The notes under the pieces were generated by a model. That model searched no databases. It had not been told where the DNA came from and saw only the letters and a list, made by a program, of their open reading frames with translations. A stretch of 64,000 bases of DNA from Macrostomum lignano (lineage: Eukaryota): assembly GCA_002269645.1 (NCBI GenBank), contig NIVC01000339.1:50756-114755 (forward strand), given 5' to 3'. The position numbers and the translations under genes were made by a program. Below are positions 4,296 through 51,751 of the stretch, in pieces. The first letter of the stretch is position 1. The number at the start of each line of letters is the position of its first letter.

Positions 4296-5709
4296 ATGTC
4301 GTCTTCTTCCTCCCTGTCAATGCCGGTCGCTGATGAGTCCGAGGATGCAGAGGAGAAGCTGCGCATTCTGCAGCAGCTGCTGGCCTCGCAAGACTCCGGC
4401 GCAGCCCCAGCCGCCGCCGCCGCCGGTGCCCCGGCCAGCCGTCAGGTGGCCTACGAGCCCGGGCTGTGCATCAAAACCCGTCAGGATTCGGGCGGCGCCA
4501 AGCTGTTCATCAACTTGTGCCGCAGCGCCGACCTGCCGGCGCCGCCCGAGGCCACGGACGAGCAGCTGGCCAAGCTGCTGGAGGATCCGGACAGCCACGC
4601 GGCCAGATTCCGGGTGCCGCTGAGCATCGGCGAGCCGCGGGCCGAGCGAGATCACGCGGGCTCCGCGTGCACAGCGATTGACGTTGTGGCCCACCCGAGC
4701 CTGCTGGACCGGATGCGCGCCAGCGACCTGTACCGGAACTTCGCCATCAGCTTGGCTGTGGAGGGCGCCGAGGCCAAGCACGGGTTGAGTTTGAGCAGGC
4801 GGGATCTGACTGTGCTGCGGAATAAGAAATACGTTGGCAGCATTGAGCAGCAGGCGGCGCAGCACTTTGTGCGGTCCGGCGGCCCGCCAAAGCCGTTTAT
4901 TCAGGTAAGACCGTTTTCTTCTGAAGATCGCCCATTGGAAATCTCCCCCTATCTAAGAATCGCCCATTGGAAATCTTCCTTATCTGACAATTGCCCATTG
5001 GAAATCTTCCCTATCTGAGAATCGGCCATTGGAAATCTCCCCTATCTGAGAATCGCCCATTGGAAATCTCCCCTATCTGACAATTGCCCATTGGAAATCT
5101 CCCCTATCTGAGAATCGCCCATTGGAAATCTTCCCTATCTGACAATTGCCCATTGGAAATCTTCCCTATCTGACAATTGCCCATTGGAAATCTCCCCTAT
5201 CTGAGAATCGCCCATTGGAAATCTTCCCTATCTGAGAATCGGCCATTGGAAATCTCCCCTATCTGAGAATCGCTCATTGGAAATCTCACCTGTCTCCCGA
5301 GAGACCCAGAAAGTCCCCATCTCCCCAGCTGAGTTCAATTGGAGTCGCACGCACCGCCCAAATCCAGGAAGTGTCTGGCAGCGAGGCGACGGCCCCGCAG
5401 CCCAGCTCGTCTCTCTCCGCACCGTCGAAGACGCCGCCCCGGCCGGAGTTCCGGCTGGTGCAGGAGCCGCCGTACGGTTCGCCCAGCCATTTCGTGTGCG
5501 AGATCCGCCTGCCGCTCATCAGCTCTGCCGGCTCCTTGCAACTGCAGGTTGGCGGCGACCGCCTGCTGCTCACCTGCCGCAGCCGGGCCTACCGGCTGGA
5601 CTTCTACCTGCCTGTCTGCATCGACCAGGCCGCCTGCTGCGCCCAGTTTGATGCCGATAGCAGACTGCTCACCGTTACTATGCCTGTTGAGGGCGGGCCT
5701 GCCGCGTAG
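4296..5709 (+). CDS. PIH1D1: PIH1 domain-containing protein 1 (R2TP co-chaperone subunit), 2 exons, ~316 aa
   Basis: Exons 4296-4904 and 5368-5709, phase 0 (CAG|GTAAGA ... ATCCAG|GAA), joining PFIQ|EVSG. The PIH1 motifs PGLCIKT..KLFINLC..PPP..FRVPLSIGEP and the C-terminal CS domain (LQVGGDRLLL..YRLDFYLP..AQFD..LLTVTMP) match PIH1D1 as I recall it. Confidence 0.92.
4925..5290. repeat. 31-bp intronic minisatellite (CGCCCATTGGAAATCTCCCCTATCTGAGAAT)
   Basis: About 12 tandem copies inside the PIH1D1 intron. Confidence 0.92.
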
Positions 5710-7487: not shown

Positions 7488-10448
7488 ATGGCCGCCGCCC
7501 CGCCCGCTGGCAAGACGCCAATCAGCTTATTGCAGGAGTTCAGCGTTAAGCGCTCCATCACCCCGGTGTACGATCTCATCGCCAACGAGGGCCCGGTGCA
7601 CGAGCCGCTGTTCGTGTTCCAGTGCCGCGCTGGCGCCTTCTCCGGCATCGGCCGGGGTGTCAGCAAGAAGCGGGCCAAGCACAATGCCGCCCACGCCACC
7701 CTGCGGAAGATGCTGAACGATGGCGCTGCCCTCACCGAGCCTGAGTGCGCCACCATCAACCAGCTGTGCCAGGCCGACTCTGTTGCACCTTCGGGCAGCT
7801 CCGCGGCTGCGGCCGCTGCTGCTGCCAGCGCTGCCGCTGCTGCCGCTGCCGCCGCCGCTGCCGCTGCTTCAGCTGACGGCGGCGACTACGAAAACTCAGC
7901 TGCTGCCGCGGCTGCCACCGACGCGGCCGCCGCCGCCGCCTACCTGGCCAATCTGGAGGAGGACGACGAGGAGGCGGCCGGGAATCCCGTCGGCGAGCTG
8001 CAGGAGCTGTGCCAGCGCCGGCTGTGGCCGCAGGCCGCCTTTCACTTCGCCTGCTCGCCGGGCCCGGCGCAGACCCGCCAGTTCGTCTGCACTGCCAGCC
8101 TGTGGCGCTGGGAGCAGCAGGCCTGCGCCAGGTCCAAGCGCCTGGCTAAACGGCGGGCTGCTCAGGTGAGGCTGCGAACTTGAGTTTTGGCTGCAGGGGA
8201 ACTGCACAGATTGTTGGGAAACTGCTCAGATTGTAAGGGAGCTCCTCAGATTGTAGGGAAACTGCTCAGATTGTTGGGGAACTGCTCAGATTGTAAGGGA
8301 GCTCCTTAGATTGTAGGGAAACTGCTCAGATTGTTGGGGAACTGCTCAGATTGTTGGGGAACTGCTCAGATTGTAAGGGAGCTGCTCACATTGTTGGGGA
8401 GCTGCTCACATTGTAGAGGAACTACTAATTGTTGGGGAAATGCTCACATTGTAGAGGAACTACTAATTGTTGGGGAACTGCTCACATTGTAGAGGAACTA
8501 CTCATTGTAGATGAACTGCTCACATTGCTGTGGAACTGCTCACATTGTAGAGGAACTGCTTACATTGATTTGGAACTGCTCACATTGTAGAGGAACTGCT
8601 AACATTGTAGAGGAACTGCTCACATTGTAGAGGAACTGCTCACATTGTAGAGGAACTGCTCACATTGTTGGGGAGCTGCTCACATTGTAGAGGAACTACT
8701 AATTGTTGGGGAACTGCTCACATTGTAGAGGAACTACTAATTGTTGGGGAACTGCTCACATTGTAGAGGAACTACTCATTGTAGATGAACTGCTCACATT
8801 GCTGTGGAACTGCTCACATTGTAGAGAAACTGCTTACATTGATTTGGAACTGCTCACATTGTAGAGGAACTGCTCACATTGTAGAGGAACTGCTCACATT
8901 GTAGAGGAACTGCTCACATTGATTTGGAACTGCTCACATTGTAGAGGAACTGCTCACATTGTAGAGGAACTGCTCACATTGTAGAGGAACTGCTCACATT
9001 GTAGAGGAACTGCTTACATTGTAGAGGAACTGCTCACATTGTAGAGGAACTGCTCACATTGTAGAGGAACTGCTCACATTGTAGAGGAACTGCTCACATT
9101 GTAGAGGAACTGCTCACATTGTAGAGGAACTGCTCACATTGTAGAGGAACTGCTCACATTGTAGAGGAACTGCTCACATTGTAGAGGAACTGCTTACATT
9201 GATGTGGAACTGCTCACATTGTAGAGGAACTGCTCACATTGTAGAGGAACTGCTCACATTGTAGAGGAACTGCTCACATTGTAGAGGAACTGCTCACATT
9301 GTAGAGGAACTGCTCACATTGTAGAGAAACTGCTCACATTGTAGAGGAACTGCTCACATTGTAGAGGAACTGCTTACATTGATGTGGAACTGCTCACATT
9401 GTAGAGGAACTGCTCACATTGTAGAGGAACTGCTCACATTGTAGAGGAACTGCTCACATTGTAGAGGAACTGCTCACATTGTAGAGGAACTGCTCACATT
9501 GTAGAGAAACTGCTCACATTGTAGAGGAACTGCTCACATTGTAGAGGAACTGCTCACATTGTAGAGGAACTGCTCACATTGTAGAGGAACTGCTCACATT
9601 GTAGAGGAACTGCTCACATTGTAGAGGAACTGCTCACATTGTAGAGGAACTGCTCACATTGTAGAGGAACTGCTCACATTGTAGAGGAACTGCTCACATT
9701 GTAGAGGAACTGCTCACATTGTAATTTTTACGGGAAACTGCTTAGATAGTTTTGAATGTTTGAACTGCTTGATGAAAACGGTACCCAGGCCAAGAAGCGT
9801 CCCAAAGTCACTTGCGTCGCAAGTTGTCACGGTACAAGTCGCCAAAAAATTGTCAGAGTCCAAGAATTAGTTTGAAACGTTTTATTGTCTGCGACTCTGT
9901 AACGACTCTGGGGCCATAAAGTCGTATTTGAGCTGTGTTAGAGTCGCACAGCCCATTGTGCCCGTCTCCCGCAGGCCCTCCTAGACCGAATCCGCGCTGA
10001 GAAGCTGACGATCCCGCAGGAGGAGCTGGACCTACTCGAAGAGGCCGAAATCCCCGTCGGCCGGGGCGCCGGCGAGGCCGGCCGCTCGTCCAGTCCGGCC
10101 AGGCTGTCCGCCACGGCCGGCACCGAGATCAACCGGCTGTTCGCCGGCCTTCGCGCTCGCAAAGGCGGCCCGACGCTCGGCCAGTTGGCCGAGTCGGCAG
10201 GTGGCGATGCCGACTGTCCGAAGGCGAGGCTGGAGGCGCTGGCGGCCGCGCACCGGTTCGCGCTGAACTTTCACGACTTGGCCGCGGGGCGCAGCGGCAA
10301 GGCGCCCTGCCTCCTGCGCCTGGGCACCGCGCCGCCGCTCGCAGCCGCAGGGTCCGGCGCCACGCCGGAGGAGGCGCGCGTCGAAGCCTGCCGCGCCGCT
10401 TTGGAGGCGCTGGCGGCGCTGACGGACCCGCACGGGCGGCCAGTCTAA
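7488..10448 (+). CDS. TARBP2/PRKRA/Loquacious-like protein with three dsRNA-binding domains, 2 exons, ~383 aa
   Basis: Exons 7488-8165 and 9975-10448, phase 0 (CAG|GTGAGG ... CCGCAG|GCC). dsRBD1 is KTPISLLQE..G.VHEPLF..KKRAKHNAA, dsRBD2 is NPVGELQELC..KRLAKRRAA, and the type-B dsRBD3 is CLLRLGTAPP..GSG.T.EEAR..ALEAL. Confidence 0.9.
8195..9722. repeat. 20-bp intronic satellite (CTGCTCACATTGTAGAGGAA), ~75 copies
   Basis: Degenerate at the 5' side, nearly homogeneous at the 3' side. Confidence 0.95.
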
Positions 10449-21729: not shown

Positions 21730-22845
21730 TCACTCAGCCTCATTCTTCAACTCCACGGGCAGCAGCGGCAGCTCTCGACTGCCCGCCATCGCCGCGTCGT
21801 TACTCCGACGCTGCTGCAGCTGCTGGAGCTGCTGCTGCTGACGAGCCCGACGTTCGCCGCTATTAACGTTGGAGCACTCCGGCGTCACCATCGTGTGGAA
21901 GCTGGTGCGGAACTTCCTGTCAATGGGCAGGTAGATGAGGAAATTCACCGCGTTGTTGGTGTAAGACAGCATCATCAGGGCGTTGTTGAGAAGGAAGCTG
22001 CTCCGGCTGGTGGAGTAGTTGATGAAGGAGTGCGAGAACAGGTAGATCGCGCTGGGCAGGCTCGTGACCAGGTGGACGGTGCCGCTGACCAGAGCCACCT
22101 TGGCCACTGCCAGCTGCTTCTGCCTGCCGTCCTGGCTGCGCTTCCTGGTCTGAGCGGCCACGGTCACCGCCGCTTCGCTTCTGGCCTCGCCGGCCGCCCT
22201 GGACATGGCCCTGGCGTGCTTCCGCAGGCAGCAGAAGATCGCCACGTTGAAGATGAGCAGCAGCGAGTCCGGCAGGGCGAAGTTTAGCAGGCTGTCAACG
22301 ATGACGTAGTACTTGAAGAACTCGTTGTTGTACATGCAGCGCGGCTGGCCGGGCGGGGCCGTGGCGTTCCACGTGTGAGAGCGGACCAGCGGCACGTCCT
22401 TGACGCACAGCACGGCCAGCATCGCCAGCAGCACCTTCAGGACGTTGGCTTTGGTCATGAGCAGGCGCGACCGGATGGGGTAGGTCACGGCCAGGAACCG
22501 GTCCAGCACGATCAGCACCAGCACCCAGATGGCCGAGTCGACGCACAGGTACGTCAGCGGTACGTGGGCAACGCAGACGGCAAAGCTCAGGTCCCGGATG
22601 TCCATGCTGAGGGTCTGCTGGATCCAGTAGCGAGTCACCGCCACGAGCAGCACGGAGCTGTCGGCGATCTGCAGCACAATGAGCAGCAGGTGGGTGCTCT
22701 CCTTGAACACGTCCGAGTTCCAGAAGATCTTCAGGCTGAGCATGTTGCCCACGGTGCCGAAGAAGACGATGACGGCTCCGTAGACGGAGACGCCGATGTT
22801 CACCGGGAAGATCTGGCTGGGCTGCTCCGGGCTACTTGAGTTCAT
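21730..22845 (-). CDS. Intronless rhodopsin-family (class A) GPCR, peptide/FMRFamide-receptor-like, 371 aa
   Basis: Seven hydrophobic segments with GN in TM1, LxxxD in TM2, DRF after TM3, an extracellular loop Cys, and NNAVNFLIY in TM7. Strong GC3 coding bias. Confidence 0.92.
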   Translation of the reverse strand: MNSSSPEQPSQIFPVNIGVSVYGAVIVFFGTVGNMLSLKIFWNSDVFKESTHLLLIVLQIADSSVLLVAVTRYWIQQTLSMDIRDLSFAVCVAHVPLTYLCVDSAIWVLVLIVLDRFLAVTYPIRSRLLMTKANVLKVLLAMLAVLCVKDVPLVRSHTWNATAPPGQPRCMYNNEFFKYYVIVDSLLNFALPDSLLLIFNVAIFCCLRKHARAMSRAAGEARSEAAVTVAAQTRKRSQDGRQKQLAVAKVALVSGTVHLVTSLPSAIYLFSHSFINYSTSRSSFLLNNALMMLSYTNNAVNFLIYLPIDRKFRTSFHTMVTPECSNVNSGERRARQQQQLQQLQQRRSNDAAMAGSRELPLLPVELKNEAE

Positions 22846-32554: not shown

Positions 32555-33234
32555 TGTTGGGCTGCGCCCTTCCAGTGTGTATGTACTCGTACTTTTGTTT
32601 TCAGTTTTCATGCCACCCCGCCCCGTCCCCCGTCTCGCGCCCGGGCCAGGGTTTGTGAGAGGCGTAAGTCTCAACCCTGGCCTAGCCCTTTGCACCCAGC
32701 CCCCGGCCCAATCTCTGTCCAATCTGGGTGCCCCCCCCCTCCCTCGTTGCCCGCCTCACCCTGGGGCTGCTCGTATTGGCTGGCTGGCTGATAAGCCGGC
32801 TGGGCCCCAGGGTTTGGCTCGCCGTCTCCATTCTGCCCCACCCCTCCCCCTTTTTTGTGTATTATTTAAATGCTAGCCCTGAGCGGGCTGCGCTCCACGT
32901 GGCTCTCTATTGGTGTCCGCTTCGTTCTTACTGTTTTTGCGTTCATCGGCGTACCTCTGCTTCGTGCCAATAAACGCTTCGTTAGTAACTCGATATATCA
33001 AGGAGAGGTGAGCTCGAGCTTTCGTTCTTCTGGGTTGCCGCGTGGGGCCGGGATCTGCAGGGACCTGGGGACGGTGAACTCTCGCCGATCCCAGGGTGTT
33101 CGGTCAGGCGAACTCTCGCCGAACCGAGCGAGACAGGGTAGGAATAGCCGGGGTGAGGGCTGGGACCGGGGTGTCTCAGGCGGGGAGGGCCCGAACCTTG
33201 ACCCGTCCAGCGGCCATTAGGCCGAGACACAACA
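32555..33234 (+). repeat. 5' LTR (~680 bp)
   Basis: Begins TGTTG and ends CAACA two bases before the PBS, with AATAAA near 32968. No second copy exists in the window, so the left end is inferred from the terminal inverted pentamer. Confidence 0.7.
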
Positions 33235-33236
33235 AG

Positions 33237-33254
33237 TGGTGCCGTGACCAGGAT
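33237..33254 (+). promoter_or_regulatory. Primer-binding site, tRNA-His type
   Basis: TGGTGCCGTGACCAGGAT. The first 12 nt are complementary to the conserved 3' end of eukaryotic tRNA-His (GTCACGGCACCA). Confidence 0.85.
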
Positions 33255-33358: not shown

Positions 33359-34339
33359 ATGGCCAATTTAGACGATCTGATTGACGCCCTGACGGCGCGT
33401 CTGCAAAACGAACTTAATGTGGCACAGCGGGTGCCGAGGCCAAATAAGTACGTGCCCACACAGGACTTTGCCCTTTGGATGCAACAATTCACAGGGTATT
33501 GTGAGGCGGCTCATATTCTAGGGGATCAGCGCAAGCAGGCGCTGCTCAGTCTGCTTGACTTTAATACTGCTTTTAAGGCTGTTGCGAATCTTGAGTTGGC
33601 CGATGATTTGCCGTATGATGAGTTTGTTGAGCAGCTAGAAGCTAGGTTTGATGAGAATAGGACTGCTCAAGATTACAAGACCGAGTTCCAGAGTAGGAAT
33701 CAGAAAGATGGCGAGCCCATTGAAGAATATGCAGACGTGCTCAAGGAGCTTATGAGAAAATCGTACCCAATGCTGCCAGCGGCCCAGCGAGAAGAGTTGG
33801 TGAAAGACAGGTTTTTGAAGGGGATTCGGGTGCCAGCCCGGGTGCTGGAGAGCGTGCTGCTGCAAGCGCCAGAGACGCTCCAGGACGCTATTAGGCGGGT
33901 GCGTCAAGTGAGGGCATCGTTGGCTCTGATGGAGCCCGAGGGTAAGCGAGCTGTGCACATGGTGGGGGGTCAGGCCGCAGCGGCTGGCAACAGCCAGGCG
34001 TCCAGGGCAGCCGCCGAGATAGCAGCTCTGAAAGCGGAAGTGGCTCAGCTAAAAGCAAGTGCTGCAGCGCCCACTGCGCCGATGGCGACAGCAAGGTCTG
34101 AGCAGCCAAAAGTGAGCTTGCAGCATCGAGCCCCTGAGCAGAGTCAGCAGCAGAGGCAGTGTGGTCGGTGCCTGCAGACAGGGCATACTACGGCTCGGTG
34201 CCGTAATGCAGTGGTCTGCCGGGAGTGTGGCCAGTCAGGGCACATGCGCAACCGCTGCTATCGTCGGTGGGACCAGTCGGGTTCGGGAAACGGATTGGGG
34301 GCTCGGCCGGGGCACCCGTCCGGGCCCCAGCGTCAGTGA
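33359..34339 (+). CDS. gag: Retrotransposon gag with two CCHC zinc knuckles
   Basis: ATG at 33359. Capsid-like region (DFALWMQQF..YC; Q..GE.IEEY..L; KDRFLKG), then CGRCLQTGHTTARC and CRECGQSGHMRNRC. Confidence 0.92.
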   Translation: MANLDDLIDALTARLQNELNVAQRVPRPNKYVPTQDFALWMQQFTGYCEAAHILGDQRKQALLSLLDFNTAFKAVANLELADDLPYDEFVEQLEARFDENRTAQDYKTEFQSRNQKDGEPIEEYADVLKELMRKSYPMLPAAQREELVKDRFLKGIRVPARVLESVLLQAPETLQDAIRRVRQVRASLALMEPEGKRAVHMVGGQAAAAGNSQASRAAAEIAALKAEVAQLKASAAAPTAPMATARSEQPKVSLQHRAPEQSQQQRQCGRCLQTGHTTARCRNAVVCRECGQSGHMRNRCYRRWDQSGSGNGLGARPGHPSGPQRQ

Positions 34340-34349
34340 ATCCGGGTGC
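34285..34349 (+). promoter_or_regulatory. -1 programmed ribosomal frameshift signal (slippery heptamer plus H-type pseudoknot)
   Basis: G GGA AAC at 34285-34291 in the gag frame. Stem 1 is GGGGCTCGG 34298-34306 with CCGGGCCCC 34320-34328; stem 2 is GCACCCG 34312-34318 with CGGGTGC 34343-34349. Confidence 0.8.
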
Positions 34350-37300
34350 ATCGGGGGCCGCGGCCTTGTCCCAGAGTGTGCTGAGTCGGCAGGGACTGGG
34401 CTATGTGGATGCACAGTTTAGGTTTGGGCCCCCGATTGCATGTCTGCTGACAGCGGGGCCACCGTGTCGTTGTTAAGCAACCGTTTCCTGAAGTCTAGAA
34501 AAGCCGACATTGACTTATCGCCGAATTTGCCGAATTTTTCCGTTTTCGCTGCCAATGGGGAACCGATTGCTGTACATGGAATGGTGACGATGAAGTTTTC
34601 TGTTGGGGACACCGAGTTTTTGCACGAGTTCGCTGTGGTCGAGGAACTGGCTGTGGCATGTATTCTGGGCACTGACTTTTTCGTGAGACACGGGATGGCG
34701 ATTGACTTTGCTAGGAATTGCTTGCAGACTGCATCCTGTGTGTATCCGTTTCGCTTATCAGCAGATAAGCCGCGTCTTTGCCGTCTGGTGCTGAGTCAGC
34801 CTGAGCAGTTCAATGCAGGTCAAGAGAAGGTGGTGCACGTCAGGTTGCAGAGAAGGGTTCCCTCTGGGGTTCAGTTCCTAGGCATTGTGGAGTCTGAGAG
34901 GAGAGTGAGTAACGAGCAGATGGTGGCCAGATCGGTACAGATGCCTGACGGGGACGGTCGCTTGGCTGTCAGGGTGTTGAACACGTCAGGATGCAGTCTG
35001 TCATTAAGGAAGGGAAGCCGAATTGGTTGGTTCTCCCCAGTGGCGGCCCAGCAGCCAGCTGGGTGGCAGGTGAACTCGGTGGAGAGTGTCCGAGACGACT
35101 GGAACCCCCTCAGCGATGTCAAGGAGTGGGGAGGATGTGGCCTGACGGGCGATGAGAAGCACGAGTTTGAGCGCCTGATGGCTCGGAATCGTGATGTCTT
35201 TGCCAGGGATAGCTCGGAGTTGGGACAGTCACACTTGATGGCGCATGAGATTGACACCGGCAACGCCAAGCCAGTAAGTCAGCCCGCGCGTAGGATTCCA
35301 CCGCGCTGGAAGGAGGAAATTGATAAGCAGGTTGATGAGTTGTTGCAGCAGGATCGCATATATCCCTGCTACTCTCCGTGGGCGAGCCCGATCGTGCCGG
35401 TTAAAAAGGCCGACGGTAGCTTGAGGTTGTGTCTAGACTATCGGCGCCTTAACGAGGTCACAGTGCCAGATCCTTACCCACCGCCGCGGATGGACGAGAC
35501 GCTTGATGCGCTAGGAGGGAACTGTGTTTTCTCGACGATGGATCTGGCCTCCGGCTATCATCAGTGCCCGATTGAGCCGAAGGACCAGTTGAAAACGGCG
35601 TTCGTGGTACCCAACAGGGGTCAGTTCGCCTGGAAGTGCATGAGTTTTGGCTTGCGCAATGCTCCCGCTACGTTCGCCAGGCTAATGTCTATGGCCCTGT
35701 CTGAGGTTAACTGGAAGGAGTGCCTGGTGTACTTTGACGATATAGTCGTGTTCGCCAAGTCGGTGGGTCAGCATCTCGAGCGATTGAAGCATGTTTTCCA
35801 GTGCCTGAGGGATGCCAATGTCAAGCTGAAGCCCGCCAAGTGTGTGTTCCTCGCAGAGCGGGTGAAGTTTCTGGGCCACATCGTCTCTCAGGAGGGGATC
35901 GCAACGGACCCGAGCAAGTGCGAGGAGATCCAGAATTGGCCGAGGCCATGTAGCGCCAAGAAGGTGCAGGCATTCCTGGGTACGTGCGCCTACTATCAGT
36001 CATTTATCCCGCAGTTTTCGGAGATTGCAGCGCCGCTGTATAGGTTAACCGCAGACGGAGTGAAGTTTGAGTGGGGTAGTGAAGAGGAGAGTTCGTTTTG
36101 CAGGCTGAAAGACGCTTTGTGTTCACCGAATGTGATGGCATTCCCGGATTTTTCGCCTGGTGCCGGGGAGTTCATCCTCGACACGGACGCCAGTTCGCGC
36201 GTCGGGCTGGGAGCCGTCCTGTCACAGCGTCAAGCAGATGGCCGTGAGAAGGTGATCGCTTACGGGTCTAGGATGATTCATGCGGCGGAGAAAAATTATT
36301 GCACCACCAGGTTAGAGTTGCTTGCCGTCGTGCACTTCGTCAAAAAGTATAGGTACTATTTGTTAGGTAGAAAGTTCACTGTTCGTTCAGACCACAAAGC
36401 TTTGCAGTGGCTAGCCAGTCTGAAGGACGTAGAGGGTCAGTGCGCAAGGTGGCTTGAGTCGCTCCAGAACTTCGACTTTGAGATCATTCACAGGCCAGGC
36501 AAGGAGCACGGCAACGCTGATTCGCTGTCTCGCAAGTACCGAAAACACGCTGGCCATGAGAGCTGCCCTAGCTGCCAGTTTAGCGAGAATGTGCCAGTAG
36601 TGAACGCGGTGTTTGGCAGTGGGCTGTCTTCGAAGGAAGTCCAGCAGGCGCAAGTGGCCGAGAAGAAGCTTGCAGCTGTCCGCTCCTATGCCCTGGACCC
36701 GGGTTCGAACCCCAGTGCGCCTAGAGTGATGTCGTGGGAGGAGCGTGTGCTGTGGGCACAACGGCAGCTGATAAGAGTAGAGTCTGATCTGTTGTATTTT
36801 CAGAGTCCCGGGAGTGGGTGCCAGAAAAAGATCTTGCTGCCGCCGGCTTTGCTGCCGAAAGTGCTCAGTGAGCTTCATGATGGGGTTGCAGGAGGGCACC
36901 TTGGGGTTAGGAAGACACAAGAGAAAGTGAAGGCGAGATACTGGTGGCCGGGGCTGAGTCGTTCCGTGGAAGAGTATTGCCGGAGCTGTGTCCACTGTGC
37001 GAAGGCGAAGCCTGGGCGCAGCAACCGGGCGCCTTTGCAGCCAATCTGCTCGGAAGGAGCTTTCCAGAGGATCATGAGTGACATTGTCGGGCCGTTGCCC
37101 AAGTCCAGAGGTGGCAATCGATTCGTGCTGACAATCCAGGATTCTTTTACTAAGTGGCCGGTGGCGGTGCCCTTGTCCAATCAGCGAGCCCCGACGGTGG
37201 CGCGAGCGATTTTTGATCACTGGATTGCGCACTTTGGTTGTCCTGAATTTCTAGTCACCGATAAGGGCACCAATTTTGAGTCGGCTTTGATGAAGCAGTT

Positions 37301-38221
37301 GTGTCGGTTGCTTGCCGTTAAGAAATGCAGAACGTCCTCCTATCACCCGATGGCTGATGGTCAGGCTGAGAGTTTCAATAAGACGTTGAAGTCAATGATC
37401 AAGTGCAGGATGAGTGAGTCGGTGGGCGAAGGAGACTGGGAGGATCTGATCCACCCGTCTCTCATGGCGTACCGTAGCAGCGTTCACAGAGGCACGGGGT
37501 ACACCCCGTACTACATGCTGTACGCCAGGGAGATGCGGCTTCCAGTGGACATCGGAACCTTGCCTGAGTCCATTCCTGCCAGTGCTCCGGCGTATGTTCA
37601 GTCATTAGGTAATAGTCTGGCTGAGGCTCATTCGCAGGTGCGGACCAACCTGCAGCAGTACCAGAGGAAACAGAAAGTGCTGTACGACTCAAGGGTGCGA
37701 GGCCCGGCCATAGAAGTGGGGATGCCGTCCTAGAATACTCGCCTGCGCTGCAGGCAGGGGAGGCAGCCAAGTTCCATTGCAATTGGAAGGGGCCGGCGAA
37801 GGTGTTAGAGAAGATATCCGATTTGAATTACCGGGTAAAGCACGCCAATAGGGGAAAGAGCAAAATAGTGCATTATAATAATTTGCGAAAAGTACCCGAG
37901 CGGCCTGAGCAGTTCAGGTTGATGAATAGGCATACGGCAGTGCAGCGCCGGTCGGCGCATCCGCCTGAGCCGGCAGGGTGCAGACAGGAGCCCGCGGGGC
38001 CGGCGACTAAAGAGCCGGAACTTGAGGAGGAGGAGGAGTTTTACTCGTATGTGGTGCCACCAGTTGCCGTTGGGCCTCGGCATGGGATAGTAGGGCCGGG
38101 AACGCCAGTTGCGCCATGCGCACCGGTGGCTCCAGCGGCGCCAGCCGTGTCTCCGCGCAGACTGCGCGAGCGTCGGGGTGTGCCCCCAGCGTATTACGGG
38201 AATCCGGTATTGTATCGTTAA
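34285..38221 (+). CDS. pol: Retrotransposon pol (protease, RT, RNase H, integrase), -1 frame to gag, interrupted by two 1-nt deletions
   Basis: Protease DSGA, RT (WASP, LCLDYR.LN, FGL.NAPATF, YFDD), RNase H (LDTDAS, TRLELLA, SDHKAL), integrase (H..GGHLG..C..C, SDIVGP, TDKGTNF, HPMADGQAESFN). Frame slips near 34449 and 37720; true end TAA at 38221. Confidence 0.9.
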
Positions 38222-38558
38222 TTCGCAGTGGGCTCACAAGGCGGTCGTCATAAATTGATTTTTAATATGCACTTGTATTAATGCCTCCACGCTGTTGTCT
38301 ATGGTAGAAAGCCTAAAATAACCTAAAATGAAAAAAATGATACAACCCCAAAGCACAAAAAAATCATAAAATGGAACGCATGGAAAGCACGTAAAAAACA
38401 TTAAATGTATTAAAATTACAAAGTATGCTAGGCAAGAAGCGTTCTCAATCGTATTGTAAAATAAACATGTCATAGGATGGGTCAGGTCAGGGTCACAGTT
38501 GCTAGTCCGCAAGGCATAGGTAGTGATTGGGTTTAAATGTCATCATTGCAGGAGGACC

Positions 38559-39575
38559 ATGTCGTCGCCAACGACACCGACTGATTTGTATGGCGTGTTA
38601 GGCGTGGGTCGGACTGCTAACTCTGCGGAGATTGAGGCAGCGTGTAGTCGTCTGTACTCAAAGCGGCCCCGCGTCTGTCCTGCCGAGGTAGAGTCTCCGG
38701 AGTCTCAGCGAGACGTGATGGCGATGTGCGTTTTATCTGACCCAGTGTTTCGGGAAGTATACGATCGGGTTGGGGAGGCAGCGTGTCAAGGGGTGTTAAA
38801 GTACGCCTACTTTTTCAATCCTCCCCCTGACGTTGAGTTGCCCGAGCAGGTCAGGTTAGCTTTGGCTAGTCTTAAGGGAAGCGCCGCAGGGGAAGCTCCA
38901 GTTCACGCGGAGATCCCAGCCGAGTTATTGGCTCCGGCTGCGCTTGCTGAGTGTAGGCGGCTGAGGGGTGCGCTGCTGGCGCGGTTGAGGGCTGGGGATA
39001 GTGAAGGAGCTTGCCTGGTGGTTCAGGAGGTGGCGAGGTTTCTTGATGGGGCTGGTGTGAGTGTGCCTGAGCAGTTGTCTAGATTCTTAGCAGTGTCTGT
39101 GTCGTTTCTGTGCAATCAGTATGGGCGGAAGAGAGGTTCTGGTGGTGGCTCCGGGAGGTGTCGGAGGGTCCCGCCTTCGGTGCTGCAGGCGGCGTTTGAG
39201 TGCGTGTTGTTGGCTGTGCGGGGTTTTGAGCTGTGTGAGTTGGGGGGTCCCTTGTTGGGGAGGCTCCGGGGTCTGTCTCTCTTAGTGGATCCTGGCCTCG
39301 CGCGGCGCCCGGAGGAGGGGAGTGACGGGCCGCACCTTTCGCAGACTCCGCTGACGGCCCAGCGCGACTTGGCGACCGAAGAGTTAACGGGTGTCGACCC
39401 CGAGCAAGTACGACCGGCCGACACGGTCCAGGAGGTCTCCCCGGTTACGACAAAAATTGAACGTGTAATTTTGGCTGCAGTGTCTGCACAGGTGACAGTG
39501 CGAACCGGCAGGGGTTTGCAATGCATAATATTTGCATATGAAATTAGTCCTGCGAAATTTCCCTCTATGGCTTGA
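38559..39575 (+). CDS. ORF3: N-terminal degenerate J-domain (no HPD) plus a helical region of unknown function, ~338 aa
   Basis: DLYGVLGVGRTANSAEIEAACSRLYSKRPR..MCVLSDPVFREVYDRVGE aligns by eye with DnaJ DYY..LGV...AS..EIK.AYR.LA..YHPD..AY.VLSD..KR..YD..GE. It is intronless, with G-rich composition like gag/pol. The C-terminal ~40 aa may be read-through into flank. Confidence 0.72.
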   Translation: MSSPTTPTDLYGVLGVGRTANSAEIEAACSRLYSKRPRVCPAEVESPESQRDVMAMCVLSDPVFREVYDRVGEAACQGVLKYAYFFNPPPDVELPEQVRLALASLKGSAAGEAPVHAEIPAELLAPAALAECRRLRGALLARLRAGDSEGACLVVQEVARFLDGAGVSVPEQLSRFLAVSVSFLCNQYGRKRGSGGGSGRCRRVPPSVLQAAFECVLLAVRGFELCELGGPLLGRLRGLSLLVDPGLARRPEEGSDGPHLSQTPLTAQRDLATEELTGVDPEQVRPADTVQEVSPVTTKIERVILAAVSAQVTVRTGRGLQCIIFAYEISPAKFPSMA

Positions 39576-49582: not shown

Positions 49583-49698
49583 AGAAAATTCTAGAATCGG
49601 TGCTCCAAAAATAGCACAGCGAAGCAGTGGGCCTATGTGTGACGGTGGTGAATGGGGAATTCTGGAAATTTCTCGAAGCTGAGCTGCAGTCTATAAAA
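49583..49698 (+). promoter_or_regulatory. HSP70 promoter: two heat-shock elements and a TATA box
   Basis: GAAaaTTCtaGAA at 49584-49596, TTCtgGAAatTTCtcGAA at 49660-49677, TATAAAA at 49692-49698. Confidence 0.88.
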
Positions 49699-49834: not shown

Positions 49835-51751
49835 ATGGGCAAGAGGAGCAACGGACCTGCAATCGGCATCGACCTGGGCACCACGTACTCGTGCGTGGGC
49901 GTGTTCCAGGCAGGCAAAGTGGAGATCATTGCCAATGACCAGGGCAACCGAACCACGCCCAGCTACGTGGCCTTCACGGACACGGAGAGGCTGGTGGGCG
50001 ACGCGGCAAAAAACCAGGTGGCGATGAACCCGGAGAACACGGTGTTCGACGCCAAGCGACTCATCGGGAGGAAGTTCAGCGACGAGACGGTGCAGCGGGA
50101 CATGAAGCTGTGGCCGTTCAAAGTGGCGAACGACGGTGGGCGGCCGAAGATCGAGGTTCAGTACATGGGCGAGAGGCGGAGCTTCTACCCGGAGGAGATC
50201 TCGGCCATGGTGCTGACCAAGATGAAGGAGACGGCGGAGGCGTACCTCGGCGAGAAGGTGACTGACGCGGTGATCACGGTGCCGGCCTACTTCAACGACA
50301 GCCAGCGGCAGGCGACGAAGGATGCTGGCGCGATCGCCGGGCTGAATGTGCTGCGGATTGTGAACGAGCCGACGGCGGCTGCCCTGGCCTACGGGCTGGA
50401 CAAGAGCCTGGACGGCGAGAAGAACATTCTGATCTTCGACCTGGGAGGCGGCACATTCGATGTGTCCATCCTGACGGTGTCGGAGGGCAGCATGTTCGAG
50501 GTGCGATCGACGGCCGGTGACACTCATTTGGGCGGCGAAGACTTTGACAACCGGCTGGTAGAGCACCTGATCCAGGAGTTCAAGCGCAAGTACCGCAAGG
50601 ACATGAGCGGCAACGCCCGAGCAGTGAGGCGGCTGCGCACAGCGGCTGAGCGAGCGAAGCGAACTCTGAGCAGCTCAGCGCAGGCGAGCATTGAGATCGA
50701 CTCGCTGTTCGAGGGCATCGACTTTTACACCAGCGTGACCAGGGCTCGGTTCGAGGAGCTGTGCGCTGACCTCTTCCGTCAGACGATGGAGCCGGTGGAG
50801 CGAGCGCTGAGGGACGCCAAGATGGACAAGAGCAGCGTCAGCGAGATTGTGCTGGTCGGCGGATCGACGAGGATCCCGAAGGTGCAGAAGCTGCTGCAGG
50901 AGTTCATGGGCGGCCGGACGCTGAACAAGTCGATCAACCCGGATGAGGCGGTCGCGTACGGAGCCGCGGTGCAGGCGGCGGTGCTGACCGGTGTGAAGGA
51001 CGAGAAGATCGAAGACCTGCTGCTGCTTGACGTGGCTCCGCTGTCGCTGGGCATCGAGACTGCCGGCGGCGTGATGACCAAGATCGTGGAGAGGAACAGC
51101 CGCATCCCGACCAAGGCGACGCAGACGTTCACCACGTACTCTGACAACCAGAGCGGCGTCACGGTGCAGGTGTTTGAGGGCGAGCGGGCGCTGACCAGGG
51201 ACAACCATCTGCTGGGCCGGTTCAACCTGGACGGCATCCCGCCAGCGCCGCGCGGAGTCCCGCAGATCGAGGTGACCTTTGACGTAGACGCCAACGGAAT
51301 CCTGGTGGTGTCGGCGAAGGACAAGAGCACCAGCAAGGAGGAGAAGATCACGATCACGAACGACAAGGGTCGGCTGTCGAAGGACGAGATCGAACGGATG
51401 GTGCGGGACGCGGAGAAGTTCCGCGAGGAGGACGAGCGGCACCGCGAGCGCCTGGCGGCCCGCAACCAGCTGGAATCGCTCGCCTTCCAGTACAAGCAGG
51501 CGGCCAACGACTGCAAGGACCGGCTGGGCGAGAAGGAGGCCCACGAGGTGACCGCCGCTTGCGACCGCGTCATCTCCTGGCTGGAGAACAACCAGACGGC
51601 CGACAAGGACGAGATCGCCGAACAGCAGCGGCAGCTGAGCAGCCTGTGCTCGCCTCTCATGGCCAAGCTGCATCAGCAGCAGCAGTCGCCTCCGCAGGGT
51701 CCGCAGCGAGCGGGACGAGCGGGCGGACCCACCGTCGAGGAGGTGGACTGA
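49835..51751 (+). CDS. HSP70: Cytosolic stress-inducible HSP70, intronless, 638 aa
   Basis: [36 protein letters not shown] and C-terminal GPTVEEVD. Single exon with HSEs upstream. Confidence 0.97.

Follow-up and report, generated by a model that had tools for sequence, protein, structure and literature searches.

A J-domain-derived accessory ORF shared by a clade of Ty3/gypsy retrotransposons in Macrostomum lignano, with a possible role as an Hsp70 adaptor against silencing

The locus lies in a 64,000-nucleotide stretch of the Macrostomum lignano assembly GCA_002269645.1 (contig NIVC01000339.1, positions 50,756 to 114,755; hereafter the window) and holds a Ty3/gypsy retrotransposon in which gag is followed by pol domains in PR-RT-RH-IN order according to Pfam (Table 1). 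Its primer-binding site, TGGTGCCGTGACC, is presumably tRNA-His-like, and pol is disrupted by frame changes near 34430 and 37730. Behind pol lies an ORF of 338 codons (38559-39575, forward strand), starting 337 bases past the TAA (38219-38221) that closes the pol tail. The original prediction had described this ORF as intact and as closer in its G-rich composition to gag and pol than to host exons. Composition agrees with that description, third-position G being 0.43 in the ORF, 0.44 in gag and 0.42 in pol, and GC3 0.59, 0.61 and 0.66, respectively, whereas two host ORFs have a GC3 of 0.88 and 0.91. The existence of the ORF and its place behind pol were likewise confirmed, but it is not intact, since the corresponding protein of the family (ORF3) has 558 residues and the last ~40 codons of the window ORF belong to the flank.

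Table 1. Coordinates of the element in the window
Feature	Position	Strand	Remarks
5' LTR	32555..33234	+	TGTTG...CAACA ends, 680 bp; pairs with a 3' LTR in other copies
Splice-donor-like site within the LTR	33003..33013	+	GAG/GTGAG; putative
Primer-binding site	33237..33254	+	TGGTGCCGTGACC...
gag, 326 aa, zinc knuckles	33359..34339	+	Pfam Retrotrans_gag E 8e-5, zf-CCHC
pol	34206..38221	+	PR-RT-RH-IN; Pfam positions
3' splice-site-like sequence	38544..38551	+	CATTGCAG, 7 bases 5' of the ORF3 ATG; putative
ORF3, element-derived portion	38559..39451	+	corresponds to ~residues 1-297 of 558 in the family protein
J-like domain, aa 9-69	38583..38765	+	RPR at 38664-38672 replaces HPD
Five-helix domain (HD)	38940..39296	+	common to seven J-ORF3 lineages; basic loop
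Deletion junction with microhomology	39444-39451		
Host flank read through to a chance stop	39452..39575	+	by comparison with element-free sites L023 and L024

A DNA search of the genome (G000) with the window ORF returned 24 matches, the window included. In twenty other copies the match is confined to about bases 1-893 (95-100% identity), one further match covers bases 1-368 at 90%, and bases 886-1017 match two sites that have no element. The end of ORF3 and the 3' LTR were thus removed from the window copy by a deletion at the microhomology GT.ACGAC, and with the 3' part of the insertion gone the reading frame runs on into flanking DNA. The window copy, which lacks the polypurine tract (PPT), the 3' LTR and the C-terminal domain described below, is probably a dead, truncated insertion.

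The family to which it belongs has at least 21 copies in the genome, with LTRs of ~700 bp and 4-bp target duplications: an LTR pair was found in 15 of the 20 other copies, 14 of which show the 4-bp duplication. Most copies measure 8.60-8.65 kb and their LTR pairs are ~99% identical. Primer-binding site and PPT are present, so that the family has the structure of a Ty3/gypsy element, the window copy itself being without its 3' LTR. A Pfam scan of the family's pol revealed no chromodomain, the mark by which a chromovirus would be recognised. Half of the other copies (10/20) have an ORF3 frame open over at least 555 codons, and most of the remainder carry one to three single-base losses. Near-identical proteins in UniRef are labelled Macrostomum lignano. 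The original prediction of a J-domain-derived accessory gene in a Ty3/gypsy element is borne out: ORF3 occurs in many copies, is enclosed by paired LTRs and evolves under purifying selection. None of the outcomes it had named as telling against itself was encountered, ORF3 recurring within LTR pairs and being missing from the element-free sites. Overlooked at that stage were the truncation of the window copy, the pseudo-TatD domain and the spread of ORF3 across a whole clade, all of which were found here.

In the complete 558-residue protein, a J-like domain is followed by HD and by a C-terminal TatD-like domain. Residues 9-69 of the window protein span the whole Pfam DnaJ profile at a score below threshold (19.3 bits, E 0.0013; cut-off 27.8), and its first 80 residues alone reach 23.7 bits against the same cut-off. 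A profile of the window family matches DNAJA1 (E 6e-11), and the best single PDB match of its J-like domain is DNAJB13 (E 5e-5), which is nevertheless not established as the donor of the element domain. The predicted model has four helices (pLDDT ~50-80), and the HPD position reads RPR throughout the window-family subfamilies seen, with RPC in a single older copy. The J-domain pattern with RPR at the HPD position had therefore been read correctly. Among the 14 residues preceding the motif, the window lineage has two Lys or Arg, versus three to six in five HPD families, and the combination of an HPD motif with a basic helix II is not seen in this lineage.

The relatives of the window family look different in this respect. 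All seven sister ORF3s scanned score above the Pfam DnaJ cut-off (48-65 bits) with HPD intact and a basic helix II, and the same ORF3, with HPD kept and HD present, follows pol in six sister lineages. Since the J-like domain of the window family also groups with HPD-bearing domains of other elements, the loss of HPD appears to be secondary, having arisen inside the clade and being confined to the window lineage; the proposal that a fold already lacking HPD was taken up is not supported. Pam16/Tim16 similarly has a J fold without HPD, the loss in the window lineage differing in being derived inside a clade of elements.

ORF3 with a J-domain was found in seven RT lineages of one animal genome, at no fewer than about 100 loci. 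Three families have at least 18, 26 and 24 copies, in addition to the 21 or more of the window family and to smaller groups, with some allelic duplicates among these counts; one or two copies of each sister family were inspected. In a search with the HPD domain, 150 of whose 215 candidates were scored, further multicopy groups appeared, and searches with the TatD-like barrel recovered families at 32-45% identity that have gag, pol, LTR pairs and an HPD J-domain. Twenty loci matching the J-domain were fetched, of which nine have gag and pol upstream, four a pol tail and five are host-type DnaJ genes without element genes, the remaining two being fragments. Two copies that seemed to stand alone proved to be 94-95% identical fragments of an LTR family.

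The distribution of ORF3 is nonetheless uneven. The pseudo-TatD barrel is missing in five of the seven lineages, and among 20 additional RT neighbours five have a recognisable ORF3 domain, the 15 without one being mostly truncated. No recognisable ORF3 occurs in the closest RT sister family (85% RT identity, LTR pairs 98.7-99.6% identical; L080-L083 on contigs C4067, C23, C382 and C1445 of G000). Copies of that family carry a G-rich stretch of 1.2 kb behind pol, in which no J, HD or barrel match was obtained and no frame is intact across copies, and which is perhaps a decayed or different ORF3. Another young family (L054-L056 and L086; LTR pairs 99.3-99.9% identical) has only ~180 codons of pseudo-TatD, from its C-terminal part, directly behind pol; this stretch covers the barrel only in part and, in the frame read, lacks its own ATG, so that it may have been left by a deletion.

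Relatives outside this genome are few. The full 558-residue protein gave no homologue at E<=0.001 among 8000 candidates from a set of 5.8 billion sequences, and scans of viral and metagenome contigs returned no relative. In a representative library the same query had 14 matches, namely host gene models, one Logan protein, and TatD and DnaJ proteins. All 116 matches of the barrel profile are Pfam TatD proteins at ~20-50% local identity (67% in one very short match), none of them element-like, and the four matches of the HD profile are three M. lignano models and one Logan protein. The only relatives beyond G000 are thus two Logan proteins, P0004 and P0135, on contigs of 1.1-1.2 kb. They are divergent relatives of the pseudo-TatD domain (51%) and of an ORF3 with J-domain, chromodomain and HD, match no G000 family fetched and possibly come from other strains or species.

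The C-terminal domain matches Pfam TatD at E 7e-6, slightly below the cut-off. A model of ORF3 folded from 14 rows, all of element type (mean pLDDT 63.7), aligns with TatD structures by Foldseek (E 3e-7) and over 232 residues with Z 23.2 and an rmsd of 2.7 A, and the predicted fold is a TatD-type TIM-barrel amidohydrolase. The metal-binding and catalytic set of TatD comprises, as we take it, HxH, the GxHP His, the GE Glu, two further His and ExD. Measured against six canonical TatD rows, which display the same residues, the window-family barrel keeps the GE Glu alone of seven catalytic positions (HxH, Glu, His, His, ExD) and is without the other six, while in sister families both the Glu and the first His persist. 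The GxHP His is replaced as well. Catalytic residues have been lost in all barrel families aligned, none of which retains the TatD set.

Folded alone, HD is predicted to form five helices (pLDDT 88), with a basic loop. Compared with Pfam, PDB sequences, PDB folds and viral folds it gave no convincing match (best Z 8.0), which does not establish a new fold, and no usable match to HD, the middle domain, was obtained in the ESM Atlas, where a sister ORF3 retrieved DnaJ clusters only (0.83-0.85). One sister lineage has a chromodomain in the linker between J-domain and HD (Pfam E 1.4e-12), whose best solved relatives are Swi6 and HP1 (E 2e-10 and 1e-9). At what we presume to be an aromatic-cage position, it reads V in L064 and F in L099.

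The same linker contains a SIM-like motif, hydrophobic and acidic, in five of the six HPD lineages, the exception being the one with the chromodomain; the pattern was defined post hoc and is loose, occurring by chance at 0.03-0.18 per shuffled protein and in two of nine control proteins. It agrees with the SIM definition in the available text of PMC12751080 and is absent from both window-family ORFs tested. A complex prediction of host SUMO with the SIM-like linker scored 0.29, the mark being 0.34. As a separate observation, the genome contains seven equal-scoring intronless SUMO-like matches (L120-L125), six of which are opposite-strand pairs on three contigs (C1551, C1565 and C2589).

No transmembrane segment was detected in seven ORF3 sequences (maximum Kyte-Doolittle 19-mer mean 1.04-1.49), so ORF3 is predicted to be a soluble protein and its identity as an env was rejected for want of an anchor. 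Mimicry through LXCXE was likewise rejected, the motif being absent from all 13 ORF3 sequences or stretches tested.

In a midpoint-rooted RT tree of 34 rows, all lineages with a J-domain ORF3 form one clade (96/97), separate from the M. lignano element Mlig-id38 and from two other elements without ORF3, and the TatD-bearing lineages form one subclade (99/98). In a midpoint-rooted J-domain tree of 39 rows, the J-like domain of the window family groups with the HPD-bearing domains of the barrel subclade (98/92), on a long branch (1.2 changes per column) for which the program flagged long-branch attraction. The element J-domains receive weak support as a monophyletic group (53/74), with the L068 lineage placed outside, and the tree singles out no host donor. 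The simplest reading of both trees would be a single gain of J-domain and HD, later gains of chromodomain and barrel, and the loss of HPD in the window lineage only.

Selection was assessed by dN/dS among copies, as the original prediction had proposed, and ORF3 proved to be under purifying selection. Pairwise values over unbroken stretches, from pairs that are not independent, lie between 0.06 and 0.44 for J-domain, HD and barrel across families, where dS is finite. For the whole ORF3 of the window family, dN/dS is 0.33-0.35 (p ~1e-4 to 1e-5), and pol has 0.15 in the one pair tested whole. By domain, purifying selection within this family is significant in all three pairs for HD, in two of four for the J-like part (0.09, p 0.001, in one of them) and in one of three for the barrel. 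In the comparisons of L062 with L098, L065 with L099 and L054 with L048, synonymous distance is uneven along the element, with dS of ~0.18-0.20 in RT versus ~1 or saturation in the J-domain and, in another pair, 98% identity in RT versus 89% in IN, which suggests that ORF3 modules and pol halves have been swapped between families.

How ORF3 is expressed may be indicated by the bases around its start. A YAG or AAG stands 0-1 bases 5' of the ATG in four of the six lineages that have an ATG and 7-16 bases away in the other two (L060-L068, L098, L099); in the L045/L047 lineage a YAG is present with no ATG of its own there. This acceptor-like AG points to cis- or spliced-leader splicing of ORF3. 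Trans-splicing is widespread in the host according to the part of PMC5730564 available, and one UniRef gene model (P0005) joins the LTR donor to the ORF3 acceptor. Contigs of four runs from four studies, taken as RNA by guess and none of them recorded as such, span gag, pol and ORF3, and no indel is listed for them within ORF3. Neither an LTR-to-ORF3 joint nor a loose end at the acceptor was seen in these contigs, an assembly form that drops rare transcripts.

ORF3 is thus borne by elements of seven RT lineages, modular and maintained by selection. We suggest, with a probability of roughly 40%, that it acts as a nuclear adaptor that brings host Hsp70 to silencing complexes and loosens them, in the manner of polyomavirus T antigen. 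The ancestral protein would have consisted of an HPD J-domain, an acidic linker and the conserved helical domain. Its J-domain would stimulate Hsp70, targeting to SUMOylated or H3K9-methylated chromatin would come from the chromodomain and the SIM-like acidic motif, and HD would bind the actual target. A nuclear target is hinted at by the HP1-like chromodomain, the nucleic-acid-binding fold, the basic loop of HD and the SIM-like motif; the anti-silencing role, one of several offered in the original prediction, gains support from the chromodomain and SIM-like motifs of the sister families. The window lineage lost the SIM-like linker and much of the basic helix along with HPD, HD and pseudo-TatD being kept under selection, and its RPR form may be an Hsp70-independent adaptor, probably holding nucleic acid through its dead nuclease fold. 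Counting against an adaptor are the young families that manage without a full ORF3, the looseness of the SIM pattern and the V in the cage of L064. A more specific picture, which we put forward only tentatively, is that of an anti-silencing machine that couples Hsp70 through its J-domain to SUMO- and HP1-marked heterochromatin by way of a helical domain not described before and of exchangeable targeting modules (dead TatD barrel, SIM, chromodomain), and that dismantles repressive complexes on the element's own insertions, one lineage having become chaperone-independent.

The closest competitor, which we consider rather unlikely, is that ORF3 serves the element as a private co-chaperone, delivering Hsp70 to Gag, RT or the integration complex for folding, assembly or uncoating, with the chromodomain guiding integration. 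Chromodomains of chromovirus integrases are thought to guide integration, and a chromodomain together with a nucleic-acid-binding fold would suit a pre-integration complex. The conservation of HPD J-domains under selection is what such a role would predict, and the link of T antigen to Hsc70 also affects viral DNA replication and virion assembly (PMC8894888, in the text available). However, in close young families Gag and Pol function although no ORF3 is recognisable there, a folding helper needs no SIM-like acidic linker, and the window family spread recently, after its loss of HPD.

It is less probable still that HD and the dead barrel form a shield that keeps host nucleases or small-RNA processing away from the element's RNA, RNA:DNA hybrids or cDNA, Hsp70 being a dispensable helper. 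The TatD fold has lost its catalytic residues in every family aligned, yet the barrel evolves between sister families at a dN/dS of 0.17-0.19; HD has its basic loop, and one young family retains only part of the barrel. Inactive nuclease folds in piRNA factors keep RNA binding, as stated in the available portion of PMC5408684. A shield would leave the five barrel-less lineages unexplained, and the barrel part of the young family, as noted, may be no more than what a deletion left behind.

The decoy of the original prediction, in which the RPR domain occupies Hsp70 or pairs with other J-proteins without stimulating ATPase, as Pam16 would, and so dampens a chaperone step of the host or of sister elements, is distinctly improbable. 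RPR or RPC is common to the window-family subfamilies, the reading frame of the domain is maintained, and the one pair mentioned above shows some purifying signal. The option is weakened by the basic helix, eroded together with HPD, and by the long branch of the domain; it would also account for a single lineage of seven while ignoring HD and the barrel. The joint loss of HPD, basic helix and SIM-like linker fits the loss of an Hsp70 arm better than it fits a decoy. That ORF3 is a mere passenger or an adjacent host gene of no benefit to the element deserves hardly any weight and is already largely refuted, since its loss or reduction in several families and its listing among host J-domain proteins in UniRef and NCBI are set against its place inside LTR pairs with target duplications, the absence of ORF3 from element-free sites, the fragmentary nature of the seeming stand-alone copies and a dN/dS far below 1 across saturated synonymous distances.

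The nearest functional analogue of the adaptor that we favour is the large T antigen of polyomaviruses, which in the available text of PMC8894888 couples its J-domain and LXCXE to Hsc70 in order to disrupt Rb/E2F complexes. Like ORF3, it is a selfish-replicon protein in which an N-terminal HPD J-domain precedes an acidic region, where a short targeting motif lies, and additional modules (PMC8894888). T antigen belongs to a DNA virus, an unrelated replicon, and uses LXCXE, which ORF3 lacks, so any likeness would be one of function.

Among LTR elements, the bdelloid Juno and Vesta families likewise have a family-specific non-env ORF3 behind pol, gained and lost across lineages, with a nuclease-fold cargo and no transmembrane domain in the accessible text (PMC5408684); non-env ORF3s of bdelloid rotifers also feature in PMC5718144, as far as its available part shows. 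The Juno/Vesta cargo is a DEDDy exonuclease or a GDSL esterase with catalytic residues intact, whereas here the core is a J-domain with HD and the TatD fold is without catalytic residues; for Juno/Vesta that text reports that selection within the genome does not depart significantly from neutrality, in contrast to the clear purifying selection found here (PMC5408684).

Accessory ORFs of LTR retrotransposons are thus known, and in the literature we found no earlier report of a J-domain co-chaperone or a TatD pseudo-nuclease as cargo; repeat databases (Repbase, GyDB, Dfam) and a 2020 classification of M. lignano LTR elements fell outside this scope, so that prior annotation is possible. DnaJ, TatD and ORF3 are unmentioned in the main text of the M. 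lignano LTR survey (PMC12801592), as are DnaJ and TatD in the available text of the DARTS paper (PMC8775202). Mlig-id38, the heat-induced Gmr1/Osvaldo element described in PMC12801592, is one of the RT neighbours (54% identity) and lies just outside the J-ORF3 clade, a placement based on a midpoint root and on Mlig-id38 as the only labelled Gmr1/Osvaldo member compared. At ~6.2 kb it has a heat-shock element (HSE) and no ORF3 domain; a scan of the window-family LTR detected no canonical HSE, and identity with Mlig-id38 was rejected on this ground and because the LTRs differ.

Chromoviruses are Ty3/gypsy elements with a chromodomain related to HP1 and Swi6, which they carry fused to integrase, whereas in the present clade only one lineage has it, within the linker of ORF3. 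The clade offers natural variants, in which HPD is present or absent, a chromodomain or a barrel is added, or ORF3 is missing altogether, and together with transgenesis in the host these make the proposed roles directly testable. The question bears on how animal transposons counter silencing and on HD as a helical domain without known relative. For annotation, some public M. lignano 'J domain-containing proteins' are transposon genes: the UniRef/NCBI models P0002, P0003, P0005, P0132, P0133, P0136 and P0137 are ORF3 under host-gene names of this kind.

Elsewhere in the window, an intronless ORF at 49835-51751 (forward strand), which we take to be of Hsp70 type, has canonical HSE matches upstream at 49583, 49659 and 49664. 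Its position 10 kb from the element is probably due to chance, and a link between the two was rejected, other copies of the element lying in other flanks. Host-like ORFs at 4296-5018, 7488-8183 and 21730-22845 presumably resemble PIH1, a double-stranded-RNA-binding protein and a GPCR, respectively, and a tandem array with a 32-bp unit extends from 13695 onward, with 91 overlapping matches.
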